Source: a virus
Taxonomy: Duplodnaviria; Heunggongvirae; Uroviricota; Caudoviricetes
IMG/VR virus record: IMGVR_UViG_2671180524_000011
Strand: one strand, 5' to 3'
Length of the DNA stretch: 21,898 nucleotides
In this document: piece by piece, positions 6,001-18,000 of the stretch
Numbering within the stretch: the first letter of the stretch is position 1
Layout of the letters: each line of letters starts with the position of its first letter
Position numbers: made by a program

Positions 6001-9000
6001 TGGCGGACGCTGGGCTGAGTTCCATACGGCAAGGCGGGGATTTATCCGGCTGGGAAAACGACTGGGCTTTGAGCGAATGCCGGATGATGAGGATGGCTTC
6101 ATGGTGTTCAGGATAGCGGTCTGACTGCTACAGTTTTCATCATTGTGTTTAAACCAACATTGTAATTCACATTCTGACCCTGCTCCGGCAGGGTTTTTTG
6201 TTATCCAGGGGGCCATTATGGGTGGAAGTAAAGGCGGTGGTGATACCAAAGTAAAACCAACAGCAGCGCAAATAGCACAGGAAGAAGTGGCCTGGAAAGG
6301 GTGGCAGGATTACAAAAATATCCTCCGCCCGGCTGAAGATAACTTCATGGAAAAGGTCGATGACCTGAACAGTGAGCAGCAGTACGACAATATTGCTGGC
6401 ACCACAAATCTGGGGTATCAGAAACAGTTTGGCGAAGCACGGAAGGAGCTTGCGGGTAATCTTGCTCAGTCCGGCGTTGACCCATCCAGTGGTCGTTTTA
6501 ATGCGGTAATGAATGCGAACCAGAGTGACCAGGTAACCGGGCAGATTGACACAACCACACGGGGGCAGGTATCGCAGGCAGATAAGTATGTTGCCGGGCT
6601 ACAGGATGTTGCTGCTCTCGGTTCTGGTCAGAAGGCGGATGCGTTACAGAGTTTTAACTCTCTGGCAGACAGCAGTCTGGCAAAAGCTAAATCGGATGCA
6701 CAGGCGGCGTTTACGAAACAGCAGGGGCGAGCCTCTCTTGTTGGCGCTGGTCTGGGTGCGGCAGGTGCATATGCGATGCATAAGGCTGGCGGTAGCGGAG
6801 GAAGTGGCGGTGCTAAAACACCTGGCACCGGCGCTAATGCCATTCAGCATCAGGCTCAGAACTGGAGACTGTAATTATGGAGTATGGCAAATACGAAACT
6901 CTCGCAAGGGCTGGTTATTCAGGAGCAGACCGCCCACAGGGTGACTGGCAGACGTCAGCAGCGCTGACACGCCAACAATACGACGACTGGCGAACCAGAT
7001 ATTTGCCCCGCGTGGCAAGGCTGGCTGACCTTGGGGAGAACAACAGTCTGATGAATGCACAGCTTGCACGGGTGGGAGGCCTTGCCACTTCCAGTCTCCG
7101 TACAGCGCAGATGGCGCAGGATAACCAGATGGCGAGATACGGGGTAAACCGCCCGGATAATCCCGACAGTAATACGCTGGGGTTACGTAATGCCCTGGCA
7201 ATTGCTGGCGCGAAAAATGGTATCCGTGAAGCCGAACAGGATCGCCAGATGAATATTCTGACGGGGGCTTCTGCACCGGCAAGACAGAAACTGAGTGTTG
7301 GCGGCCAACTGGTGGCAGCGTAAGGGGGCAATATGGGATACGGTTTACTGGATATTGCAAATCAGTCGCGGCGTGAGGCATTACAGGGAATAAGTGACGC
7401 AGACAGACGACGTGAAGAAATTGAGGCTGCGAACAAACAGATGGCGGCGCAACAGAAAGCGCAGAACAAGCAGAATATCGGTACGGGCATTGGTACGGGG
7501 GCGGCTATTGGCGCATCCGTTGGTGGTCCTGTTGGTGCTGTTGCTGGAGCAGTAATTGGCGGCATTGCTGGTTCTTTGTTTTAAGGAGTGGTGAATGAGC
7601 GGATTTGCACAGGGGTTACTTGCCGGATTCAGCACCGTTGACCAGGCAATGACCCGTCGTAAGGAGCTTGGTCTGCGTGAAGCACAGCTTGCCCGGCAAC
7701 AGAAAAATAACGAGCGCGATTTTGAGTTTGCGCAGTCTCAGTTTGAACATAATAAAAACGTTGATCAGCGGAACTTTGATTACAGAGCCAAAGTTGACGA
7801 CCGTAATTATGCACTGAAGGAGAGGGAGTTTAACGCTAACCAGAATTACCGGAATGCGTCACTGGGTATGGAGCAGCAGCGACTCCAGTTGCAGAAATAC
7901 AACCAGCGACGGCTTGAGTATAACGATATGATTGCCCATAGCCAGCCACTAATGGAAGCGCTTGGAAAAGCAATTGAGGCTGGCGATCAGGAGGCTGCAA
8001 CGCGTCTGTTCGGGCAGCTGCCAAAGGGACATCCATTAATTCTTATGTCAAACGAAGGCTATGCAGCGAAAGCGGGTCAGGCCGTGATCAACCTGCAAAA
8101 AATCTTTGGTGATAAGCCGGACATGGCGATCGATTCGCTGAATACCCCGGAAAATCTCGATGTGCTTTCCGGCGTGTTTGCCCCGGAACTACAACAGCGT
8201 ATTGGCATGCCTGATTCAACCGGGGACAAAACGATAAAAGAGGCCAGGATTGGCAGTATCGTACCAGCGCAGCAGGAAGGGTACGTACTTATTGGCCTTG
8301 ATCTCACATACAGCGATGGCTCCACCGCGCATAAACCTGTAACAGAATACGGCAGTGCGCACCCTGATGATCAAACCGTGCTGGCGATACCCGTTGATAA
8401 GGCTATCGCTCAGGTCAGGGATCGCAGCAAATTTGCAGAGATATCGAAAAATTATGGTTATTTTATGCCGAAGCAGCAGGGACTTTCTCTGAAAGAGCTT
8501 CAGAAGGGGGCCAGCAACGTAGCGGCGGACGCGATCAAGAATGGCGGTAATGCTCAGGCTGCGGTGGATGAATATTATGCTGCGACTGGTTCACAACCGC
8601 ATCAACAGAAAATTCAGCAACAAAAACTTCAGCAACAGGTTATCAACTGGGCGGGAGATGATCCTGACAAGCTGTCATTTGCCAGAAATGTAGCGGCCCG
8701 TCAGCCTGAAATGCTGGAACCTCAGAATCAGAAATTGCTGGAGAACGGGTATGCGAATTTTCTCCGTATTCAAAAGGCCAGGGGGGAACAGGCCAGAGAT
8801 GAAAGTGCTTCATCTGCATCTCAGTTTATCCGTGGACTGAAACAGAATTACGCCCAGTAATTCACGATATTCCATTAATACCATTTCCTGATGCCCGGCC
8901 ATTGTGCCGGGTTTTTTTATGGAGTCTGTATGGCCTATTCAGAGGAACAGCGTCCTGAGGCGCAACTCGGTAACCAGAATCGTAACAGCCTGAACATTCA

Positions 9001-15000: not shown

Positions 15001-18000
15001 TATTGACGATATGCTGGCCCGTCGCCGTGAGCTTATCCGTGAGGCCGGACTTGAAGAGAACGGTGTGGTGGATGCCTGGCAGAACGCCTACCGTTACTAC
15101 GTTCCCCTGAAAGGTCAGGATGTTGACGGTGTGGTGTCACTGCCCCGTACAGGTAAGGGCTTCACCATCGGCGGACGTGAAAGCAGGCAGGCCATGGGGC
15201 GTGCATCCCGGGCACAGTCTCCGTCCACTCAGGCGATACAGGACCTGAGCGAATCGCTGATCCGCCATCGCAAAAACGAAGTGGGTAACGCCTTCCTGAA
15301 ACTGGTGCAGGATAATCCCGACAAGGATTACTGGCAGGTATTCACCGATGACAGACCGGATACCATGCGGACGATTGCAGAGCGCAAGGACCAGGAAACT
15401 GGTGAAACCATTCGCGAAGTTGTCGAACGCCCTGTACCGATGGCAATGATGGCAGACCGGTACTTCACCACCAAAAAGAACGGCAAAACGTACTACATCA
15501 AACTCCATGATCCGCGCCTGATGCGTGCGATGAAGAGTATGGGACCGGAAACCAGCAATGCCTTTGTTCGTACGCTGGGGAAAGTTAACCGCTTCCTGGC
15601 AACGGTGAACACGTCGTATAACCCGGAATTCCTGGTCAGTAACTTCATCCGTGACGTGCAGACGGCGGTGATGAACCTGAAGGCGGAGCAGGGAAGGAGC
15701 GACGGTAAACTGAAAGGGCTGGATAACTTATCCGCCCTGGCTGTGGTGAAAGACAGCCGTTCTGCCATGTCAGCCGTATACGCCAGTCTGCGTGGTAAAA
15801 CCCTCACGGGAAAAGGTGCACAGTGGCAGAAGGTGTGGAAAGAGTTTGTTGAGGACGGAGGGAAAACCGGCTGGTTTAACATGGGTGACCTTGAAGGCCA
15901 GCAGAAGGAAATGGATCGCCTTGTCTCACTGGCGAAGGGGGGATGGAAAGGCCAGAGTATCGGTGCATGGAATTCGTTCCTTAACCTTGTCGAGGATGCC
16001 AACGGTGCGGTTGAAAACGCTCTGCGTCTTTCTGCCTATAAGCACGCCCGTGATGCCGGTTTGTCACGCCAGCAGGCGGCGTCTCTTGCCAAAAACATGA
16101 CGGTGAACTTTAACCGTCGTGGTGAGCAGGGGGCGCTGATGAATTCGCTGTACATGTTCGCCAACGCCAGCATTCAGGGAACGGCAAATCTGGTGAGAAC
16201 GCTCGGACATCTTAATGGTGAGGGACCTTTACTGGAGCGCCTTCGCTGGAAGAATCTGAATGTTCCGCAGAAAATCGCGCTTGCCGCTGTGGGAGCAGGT
16301 TATCTGCTTGGCTCGCTTAACCGCAGCGTGGCGGGTGAGGATGATGACGGGGTTAACTGGTATGACAAGGTGCCGTCTCATGTGAAAGAGCGTAACCTCG
16401 TCATTATGAAATCGGTGTTCGGGGGCAAGGCCGGAGAGTACTGGAGTATTCCTCTGCCTTACGGGTACAACGTTTTCTTCCTGCTCGGGCATACTGCTGA
16501 AGGTGTGGCGGCGGGTGACCTGACGGCGTCCCGTGCTGCCGGTAATGTTGTTGGTGGTGTGCTTGGTGCATTCAGCCCGATTGGCAGTGAGACGTCGGAA
16601 ACACTGTCCGGGGCATTGCTGAAAAATGCAGCGCCGACCATTCTGCGTCCGTTTGCGAACCTTGCCATGAATGAAAACTTCATGGGGGCGCAGATTTACC
16701 AGGAGAACATGCCGTTTGGTACACCAAAACCTGACAGCCAGCTGGGAAGACGTTCAACGCCAGAAGCGTACAAGGCGTTTGCATCCTGGCTGAATGCGTT
16801 CTCAGGTGGCAGCCAGTACCGTCCCGGCGCGGTGGATATCACACCGGAATCGCTGAAATTCTGGATTGACTATATCTCCGGAGGGACAGGGCGCTTCATT
16901 TCCAAAACCACGGATGCGGCGGTGAAATCGCTGAATGGTATTGATATACCGGAACAGCAGGTGCCCTTCCTGGGGAAAATTTCGGGGGAGGTGATGCCGT
17001 ATGCAGACCAGCAGAAGATGTACGACCGGATGACAGAGATTGCGCAGTATCACGCAGAGCTGAAGAGTCTGACCGGTGCAGAAAGAACGGCGTTCATTGA
17101 CGAGAACAACGGAAAATTGTCGATGAACGGGCTTATGCAGGATACCCGGAAGAGACTGAAGGATTTGCGTAAACAGCGTGATGCCATTTACGCCGACAGT
17201 ACTCTCAGTCTGGCGCAACAGTCGGCGATGGTGAAATCGGTAGAGCGGGATATGAAAATTGCCGTGGATCGGTTTAACCGCGAGTACAACAAAAAAGTGG
17301 GAGTGGATTAACAGAAATGGCCCCGTACGGAAGTGCGGGGCTGATTAAGAAATAAACACTCATTGACCTGTAATAACCGGAGCTATTAACATATAGTCAG
17401 AAGAGCATTTCATGTGATACAGAGAGCCGATTTATGTTTAATGAAGAAAAAGTTGCGCAAATGGCAGCGTATTTGCTGAAAAAGCATGGCGGATCTATGC
17501 GTTTCATTAAGCTGAAGCAGCAACGGTAATGGCGAATAGCATTTATGAGCAAAATAATCTTGATATGTTATTAGGCGATCTGATGTAACCGGGATGATGT
17601 TCACCCCTTATCGCCGGGGAACAATACCGGCAATCAGAATTGCGGATGGAACTATTCAGGCCCACGATGATATCGATGAGGAGTTTTTTCAGCCAGTATT
17701 GGATGGCTTTCTTATATCCAAATATACGCCATTTGACATCCTCCACGCCCTGAAGGACGGGGTTTTACAGCGCACCGGATAAGATTCGGTGTTTTGTTGA
17801 AAAATACTGTGATAACAAACAGAAAACCCGTCAGTAAGACGGGCTTAGCAAGCTGGGACGGTTACTTTAATAATTTCAGTGCCTTTACATCCACTTCAAC
17901 ACTGCTCAGGTCTTTATCAATTTCACCCTCAATTCTTACTTTGTCTTTCGGAGAAACATTCTGACCGGCCCATATGCTGTCATCGATATCCGTGACAATT

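Follow-up and report, generated by a model that had tools for sequence, protein, structure and literature searches.

Short-tailed Shiga toxin (Stx) phages spread Shiga toxin genes, and they universally carry a giant gene that has been described under several names. In phage Sp5, deletion of this gene (ORF80, ECs1242; published length 2,793 aa) leaves excision and the packaging of DNA into normal-looking heads in place, yields neither plaques nor lysogens, and can be complemented (Mondal et al. 2016). In phage phi24B, its counterpart gp47 was detected in purified virions, is absent from the electron cryo-microscopy model of capsid, portal, adaptors, nozzle, needle and fibers, and was proposed to be an encapsidated ejection protein (Bubenchikov et al., bioRxiv 2026). 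The class of polyvalent proteins of phages and conjugative elements was defined in 2017 (Iyer, Burroughs, Anand, de Souza and Aravind). Here we analyze a stretch of 21,898 nucleotides (the window) from IMG/VR virus record IMGVR_UViG_2671180524_000011, assigned to Caudoviricetes, which is the right arm of Stx2 phage 933W at 100% identity. Its giant coding sequence (positions 8930-17311, plus strand, as are all features below unless stated; 2,793 aa, without cysteine) is 933W L0134, also named ST933Wp72, and Sp5 ORF80; it is 100% identical to the 933W and Sp5 proteins and, over the C-terminal 951 aa, 98% identical to its homologue phi24B gp47. We conclude that it is probably an internal virion (pilot or ejection) protein of 933W-type podophages and a polyvalent protein of the phage type, which most likely enters the host cell along with the DNA.

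The gene, its class, its essentiality and its location in the virion are already published, and the database name of the protein already says 'large polyvalent protein'; RefSeq lists it as "LPD5 domain-containing protein" or "LPD38 domain-containing protein". An earlier note, made from the sequence alone, had taken the open reading frame (ORF) for a virion-delivered polyvalent protein. That interpretation is supported, both by four Pfam polyvalent domains and by the abundance of the phi24B homologue in purified virions, but it is not new, being already in the literature. The note had also called the size exceptional for such a phage, which does not hold within the gene's own group, since every short-tailed Stx phage has a giant of this kind, as do the related podophages of Vibrio, Ralstonia and Burkholderia. 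The features by which polyvalent proteins are recognized are present: several unrelated LPD-type domains, a place in the late structural block, and a zincin hub domain, here in two copies, the structural support for which is weak. LPD5, LPD1, MuF_C and LPD38 were all defined as parts of polyvalent proteins, in which the zincin-like metallopeptidase was described as a hub domain that probably processes them (Iyer et al. 2017). The protein is made late, and it is essential for infectious particles and dispensable for head assembly and DNA packaging, as others have shown for the identical protein or its close homologues.

That the protein resides in the particle is best documented for phi24B. There, gp47 gave 10,962 peptide-spectrum matches (PSMs), a count exceeded by the major capsid protein alone (Bubenchikov et al., bioRxiv 2026, supplementary table), and its PSMs were highest in the four topmost gel slices, above the peak slice of the 80-kDa portal protein (Bubenchikov et al., bioRxiv 2026). 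From the PSMs per residue in the batch sample, we obtain a very rough estimate of 11-35 copies of gp47 per virion. In addition, an unassigned density in the adaptor lumen of phi24B vanishes on ejection (Bubenchikov et al., bioRxiv 2026). Among more distant relatives, JC1 gp69, whose greatest similarity is to Bcep22 gp75 and whose gene lies at the site of the tblastn match of the C-terminal module in the JC1 genome, was found in virions by mass spectrometry, and a second LPD38 protein, gp25 of PTXU04, is fitness-essential, its knock-down abolishing efficient infection. The Sp5 work arrived at a different function. The heads made by the ORF80 deletion mutant were not bound by a tail-fiber antibody (data not shown in that paper), and because this binding was lost ORF80 was called a tail-assembly gene; a COG1483 AAA+ match was noted as well (Mondal et al. 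2016). Read in that way, the protein would be a tail-assembly factor, possibly an AAA+ ATPase powering tail formation, and would not be injected. The DNA-filled, antibody-negative heads and the reported COG1483 match speak for such a role, which we nevertheless consider quite improbable, since mature virions contain the protein in quantities not expected of a catalytic assembly factor, and the resolved tail does not include it. No Walker A motif ([AG]xxxxGK[ST]) occurs in the 2,793 residues and no AAA+ or other P-loop family was found in Pfam, NCBIfam or PHROGs; for want of a P-loop, the AAA+ tail-assembly assignment was rejected.

A further line of evidence is the composition of the protein. 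None of its 2,793 residues is a cysteine, which at a cysteine content of 1.1% has a probability of about 4e-14. Equally devoid of cysteine are Bcep22 gp75 (4,602 aa) and the relatives from Vibrio (3,130 aa), Ralstonia (4,219 aa) and Bacillus (1,672 aa), and 121 of 150 diverse representatives have no cysteine at all. The same is true of T7 gp15, of T7 gp16 (1,302 residues read) and of the N4 virion RNA polymerase (vRNAP; 3,500 aa), whereas the nozzle protein encoded in the window contains eight cysteines. We infer that cysteine avoidance marks proteins that have to pass, in an unfolded state, through both the tail channel and the oxidizing periplasm. This bears on another possibility, namely that the giant protein is an internal core or DNA-organizing protein that is not ejected and instead fills and organizes the oversized T=9 capsid and stabilizes the portal vertex. 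Its abundance and internal location and the tail-attachment phenotype of the deletion would suit such a protein, as would the ~60-kb genome that phi24B holds in a T=9 shell (Bubenchikov et al., bioRxiv 2026). It is nonetheless a very unlikely explanation, because cysteine avoidance is common to known ejected proteins, because the internal tail density is lost on ejection, and because enzymatic cargo (RNase-like and peptidase domains here; ADP-ribosyltransferase, helicase-methylase and kinase in relatives) would be hard to account for in a protein that never left the capsid.

The reading frame itself is one unbroken plus-strand ORF from 8891 to 17311, of 2,806 codons when counted from the first ATG. 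Consistent with the earlier note, the ORF is uninterrupted, and the start at 8930, giving 2,793 aa, is preferred over 8891. The ATG at 8930 is the better start because a GGAG Shine-Dalgarno sequence (8921-8924; motif and start codon together 8921-8932) lies 5 nt before it, whereas the ATG at 8891 has no Shine-Dalgarno sequence and falls within an intrinsic-terminator-like hairpin; the resulting length equals that of Sp5 ORF80. The hairpin (8893-8919) lies ahead of the giant ORF, past the stop of the preceding gene (8860), and consists of GCCCGGC, the loop cattgt and GCCGGG (7 bp, six of them G-C), followed by a run of seven T. Database starts are thus too early, the RefSeq protein (2,806 aa) and the phi24B record (2,811 aa) being over-extended by 13-18 codons into the hairpin. 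A strong hairpin with a T run in such a place, right before a late gene that is essential, implies that transcription reads through it, presumably with the help of Q antitermination. The ORF was found in 186 phage records at at least 90% identity and at least 80% of the length, 55 of them at 99% identity or more, and since it is intact in all 186 it is not an assembly artifact. A mis-joined assembly, a tape-measure protein or a tail-fiber protein had been named in advance by the earlier note as the outcomes that would overturn its interpretation, and only the size of the gene and its position near tail genes favor them. Pfam and PHROG profile searches returned no tape-measure or tail-fiber match, and in this podophage fibers and needle are assigned to other genes; with the 186 intact records these explanations are refuted, and what probability we leave them is negligible. 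The tail nozzle, needle and lom genes all precede the giant ORF, in line with the position described by the note, as do the genes of four small virion proteins, and the giant gene closes the structural block.

Because a search for full-length homologues gave only relatives at least 95% identical, diverse relatives were taken from an exhaustive phmmer search of cluster representatives, and the domain map is based on BLAST and iterated hidden Markov model (HMM) comparison with 150 of them (representatives of 50%-identity clusters), on Pfam and NCBIfam, and on two AlphaFold models. The resulting architecture is that of two bookends, a conserved N-terminal Gly-zipper domain and a ~900-aa C-terminal helical module, which flank swappable cargo. 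Judged by sequence, the cargo in 933W comprises an unnamed helical domain, LPD5, two putative zincin-like metallopeptidases and a predicted PBECR RNase-like domain. The N-terminal domain (aa ~100-445; 9227-10264; iterated HMM) is present in 77 of the 150 diverse relatives, in which it always starts at or before residue 283, and it ends in a Gly-zipper-like segment, GAAFGAAMGAPFGAVAG (aa 406-433; nt 10145-10228), with weak Pfam Gly-zipper matches. The protein begins with a hydrophilic N-terminus (MAYSEEQRPEAQLGNQNRNS...) that has no signal-peptide-like h-region, in agreement with the note's claim that a signal peptide is lacking. The Gly/Ala hydrophobic segments that the note had placed at both ends are indeed there (aa 181-199, 407-426, 2449-2467 and 2536-2553), but they are only weakly hydrophobic and none is at the classical transmembrane level. 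Behind the N-terminal domain lies a low-complexity, acidic, Pro/Gln-rich stretch (aa ~446-899; 10265-11626; composition per 100 aa), which bears out the long hydrophilic linker that had been proposed; it has no family matches and is presumably disordered. Then follow the unnamed helical domain (aa 900-1050; 11627-12079; HMM and BLAST) with the motif IEDFGEK..GARK, which is confidently modeled by AlphaFold2 (AF2) and collinear with the following domains in more than 10 relatives, and LPD5 (aa 1051-1200; 12080-12529; Pfam PF18799, E 6.5e-45), a domain listed as possibly enzymatic (Iyer et al. 2017). The other three Pfam polyvalent domains are LPD1 (aa 1361-1440, E 5e-24), MuF_C (aa 1750-1839, E 1e-17) and LPD38 (aa 2476-2681, E 8e-48). 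A sequence search of the PDB with the whole giant protein gave nothing meaningful, and PADLOC gave no match.

The HExxH motif that had been noticed in the middle of the protein is present, although it occurs twice, as HEWFH at aa 1284 and as HEIIH(H) at aa 1551. The first belongs to a zincin-like metallopeptidase domain (aa 1182-1445; 12473-13264), for which the best profile match is NCBIfam NF041907 CLCA_X (E 9e-44, below the family cut-off) and in which H, E and H of the motif are near-invariant in 26 sequences. Since the CLCA_X match spans both HEWFH and all of LPD1, the Pfam LPD1 domain, the only Pfam match within the two HExxH domains, is the C-terminal half of this putative metallopeptidase. 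The second candidate domain (aa 1465-1670; 13322-13939; HEIIHH at aa 1551) was delimited from an alignment of relatives, in which E88, H91 and E143 are invariant, the downstream Glu corresponding to aa 1607; the relatives mostly have HExxxH, and an HExxxH zincin clade has been described (Iyer et al. 2017). A sequence search of the PDB with the profile of this second domain gave nothing meaningful, and Foldseek with the whole model of aa 900-1886 gave weak matches to anthrax lethal factor and selecase (E 0.27, prob 0.69).

The phi24B preprint bases a proposal of peptidoglycan degradation on a MuF-C 'metallopeptidase' (Bubenchikov et al., bioRxiv 2026). In that scenario the giant would be ejected and would serve, as an enzyme, mainly to digest peptidoglycan and so open the way for a conduit to the inner membrane. 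The two HExxH-type domains are compatible with it, and Bcep22 gp75 carries an SLT transglycosylase, so that the family can carry wall-degrading cargo. The label on MuF-C appears to be a mislabel, however, the HExxH domains sitting at aa 1182-1445 and 1465-1670, and MuF-C being, according to its describers, a BECR-fold RNase-like domain (PBECR; Iyer et al. 2017). Moreover, no lysozyme, SLT, M23 or amidase family was found in the giant protein by Pfam-type searches, the first peptidase domain matches CLCA_X best, and the zincins of polyvalent proteins have been read as self-processing (Iyer et al. 2017). A main role in peptidoglycan digestion is therefore unlikely.

The predicted metal-independent RNase domain, PBECR or MuF_C (aa ~1717-1876, Pfam aa 1750-1839; 14078-14557; PF18819, E 1e-17), keeps the signature of its family: H1752 is invariant, S1816 is Ser in 6 of 7 homologues and Thr in the seventh, and H1801 is conserved. 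This part of the AF2 model is poor, and the fold assignment is made from the sequence signature. Among 120 close E. coli homologues (95-100% identical), aa 1701-1900 (window 14030-14630), comprising PBECR and the junction to the C-terminal module, is by far the most variable part of the protein (9-18% against a mean of 3.4%). Such variability suggests recombination or diversifying selection acting on the putative RNase-like cargo.

The C-terminal module (C-module; aa ~1887-2793; 14588-17308) was delimited by phmmer and an AF2 model and contains LPD38 (nt 16355-16972). In the model (pLDDT 77.7, pTM 0.73) it is almost entirely alpha-helical with one small beta domain, and its LPD38 region has Gly/Ala-rich, weakly hydrophobic helices. 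The exhaustive phmmer search with the C-module retrieved 8,528 cluster representatives at E <= 1e-3 and 4,762 at E <= 1e-30. The clusters carrying it range from 840 to 5,181 aa in length, with N-terminal extensions from ~0 to 4,292 aa, and the module stands at the C-terminal end of the protein in all 147 measurable representatives (median offset -1 residue). Identity over the module is 41% in Vibrio podophages, ~26-27% in Ralstonia phages (e.g. Gerry and Gamede) and 27% over 955 aa in Bcep22 gp75, and the module is found more distantly in Bacillus phage Pascal. In the three other genomes inspected, from a Vibrio, a Ralstonia and a Burkholderia phage, the gene carrying it is likewise the last of the structural block. 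What precedes the module varies: SLT, methyltransferase, SNF2 helicase and LPD3 in Bcep22 gp75, and in twelve further giants, all twelve with LPD38, Strawberry-notch (Sno)-type helicase, InPase, ADP-ribosyltransferase, DdrB-ParB, RadC, kinase and others.

The C-module can also exist as a separate gene of ~1,040 aa. On one metagenomic, phage-like Logan contig (L008, ERR12074382, positions 1-13129), which thus has the Stx architecture in split form, a 3,616-aa polyvalent protein with a Strawberry-notch helicase is followed, six genes downstream, by a 1,042-aa minimal LPD38 C-module protein, which is the last of the block. C-module proteins of 1,040-1,410 aa share an N-terminal motif of their own, and one of them is intact within a 29.7-kb contig; among the short 'module-only' relatives, several below 900 aa resemble fragments. 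CsrA homologues are encoded near the split genes of L008 and in PTXU04, and the CsrA of JC1 is virion-associated.

The Burkholderia and Ralstonia relatives are labeled as DarB-like anti-restriction proteins, and one might suppose that the 933W giant is such an accessory protein too. PHROG 10089, 'DarB-like antirestriction', does match aa 2351-2681, and the identity with Bcep22 gp75 has been given above. This similarity is confined to the C-module, though, and even on K-12 hosts the phage cannot do without the gene. DarB-like function is defined by a methyltransferase and an SNF2 helicase, both of which Bcep22 gp75 has and the Stx protein lacks; the label was rejected on this ground, and we give the idea very little credence. 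It is possible, although we put it forward only tentatively, that the C-module together with the N-terminal Gly-zipper domain constitutes a widespread podophage chassis for protein translocation, which would anchor at the portal, form a conduit and drag the cargo fused upstream of it into the host. If so, it would represent a natural, programmable protein-injection system and would be the real reason why 'anti-defence' giants are essential.

Taking the giant protein as an ejection protein, the following course of events may be envisaged. Copies would be packed inside the T=9 capsid, perhaps partly in the lumen of portal and adaptor. Once the needle is released at BamA, the protein would pass unfolded down the portal-tail channel, either together with the DNA or before it, and the end modules with their Gly/Ala amphipathic helices would build or extend a trans-envelope conduit; formation of this conduit by the end modules would account for the need for the gene even where the host has no relevant defences. 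The metallopeptidase domains might then cut the chain at its linkers, and the freed PBECR RNase and LPD5 domains might act in the cytoplasm on host or defence targets during the first minutes of infection. Several points weigh against this reading. The loss of tail-fiber labeling reported for the Sp5 deletion is not accounted for by ejection alone; it speaks for a task where portal and tail meet, one superfluous in a pure ejection protein, and suggests an extra function at the portal vertex. No segment of the protein reaches classical transmembrane hydrophobicity. The conduit role is argued by analogy only, because the C-module has no detectable similarity to T7 gp15 or gp16 (hhalign probability 0.1-0.2%), to the C-terminal 1,401 residues of N4 vRNAP (aa 2100-3500; hhalign probability 0.2%) or to solved structures, among which a PDB profile search and structure searches found no informative relative. 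Structure comparison supports the zincin fold weakly. Finally, the gel-slice profile of phi24B gp47 shows mostly very large species. The giant protein is nevertheless a prime candidate for how Stx phages cross the E. coli envelope after binding BamA, and understanding the C-module would explain how giant effectors are packaged and injected and could offer a modular scaffold for protein delivery.

Upstream of the giant gene, four ORFs of 218, 148, 83 and 421 aa (6218-8860) correspond to phi24B gp51, gp50, an 86-aa ORF and gp48, the last being Sp5 ORF79. None of the four encodes a cysteine, so that five consecutive ORFs (6218-17311) are Cys-free. The 218-aa and 83-aa proteins have Gly-zipper C-terminal segments, ASLVGAGLGAAGAYA and GAAIGASVGGPVGAVAGAVIGGIAGSLF (Kyte-Doolittle hydropathy 1.69 for the latter), respectively. 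In phi24B, gp51, gp50, gp48 and gp47 gave 82-746 PSMs in the virion batch sample and the small Gly-zipper ORF only 6 (Bubenchikov et al., bioRxiv 2026). These ORFs probably belong to the same internal or ejection-protein cassette as the giant gene. ORF79 (window 7595-8860) is essential in its own right, its deletion in Sp5 being non-infectious with DNA packaged (Mondal et al. 2016). The phi24B protein, gp48, is labeled 'Transcription factor?', and gave 1,634 PSMs with a peak in the same slices as the 409-aa major capsid protein; 'a transcription regulation factors', presumably gp48, is discounted in the text as a contaminant (Bubenchikov et al., bioRxiv 2026). A protein of 442-532 aa occupies the ORF79 position in all three related genomes examined (Bcep22, a Vibrio phage and Ralstonia phage Gerry) and is annotated as virion-associated in Bcep22. 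Sp5 ORF79 has no Pfam match and no BLASTP similarity to Bcep22 gp74 or to the syntenic 404-aa protein of L008, and for lack of such similarity the conservation of this neighbor is positional only.

Elsewhere in the window, G+C falls to 0.41-0.42 across 3500-5340, a block that holds the genes for a 'membrane associated protein' and Lom and is closed by a terminator-like hairpin at 5317-5335; it resembles a typical moron insertion among tail genes. Downstream of the giant gene are a YgiW/YdeI OB-fold gene (17862-18206, minus strand) and the hok/sok-type toxin-antitoxin locus of 933W (hokW/mokW/sokW; 18326-18706), with an Rfam sok match at 18532-18706 (minus strand, 113.5 bits). An Rfam match to sRNA-Xcc1 (21364-21452, minus strand; 69.1 bits, above the gathering score) lies near the attR end of the prophage.

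In comparison with known systems, phi24B gp47, Sp5 ORF80 and 933W L0134 are the same gene, and nothing of substance differs between them beyond the database start. T7 gp14, gp15 and gp16, encoded by genes clustered after the tail genes, are ejected and form a trans-envelope channel. The giant protein resembles them as an internal virion protein, gp15 and gp16 being Cys-free too, and differs in having no profile homology to gp15 or gp16 and no SLT/lysozyme family of the gp16 type. N4 vRNAP (gp50) is likewise a giant of 3,500 aa that is Cys-free, encapsidated and ejected, and it contains a zincin-like peptidase domain (Iyer et al. 2017); the Stx protein, in contrast, has no RNA polymerase family in Pfam, and no similarity is detectable between its C-module and the C-terminal 1,401 residues of N4 vRNAP. 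Coliphage PTXU04 gp25 (2,198 aa), compared by annotation, shares the LPD38 signature and essentiality and has no other annotated domain. Bcep22 gp75 and JC1 gp69 (Lessievirus) and the Ralstonia and Vibrio giants have the C-module, the last position in the structural block and the absence of cysteine in common with the 933W protein, but are 3,130-4,602 aa long and carry entirely different cargo. With the phage-type polyvalent proteins (Iyer et al. 2017), the 933W protein shares giant multidomain organization, a late virion gene, and zincin, PBECR and LPD domains, LPD38 being confined to phages. The difference is that LPD38 was described there as a domain of ~190 aa, whereas here it is the core of a ~900-aa, always C-terminal module that is paired with an N-terminal domain.

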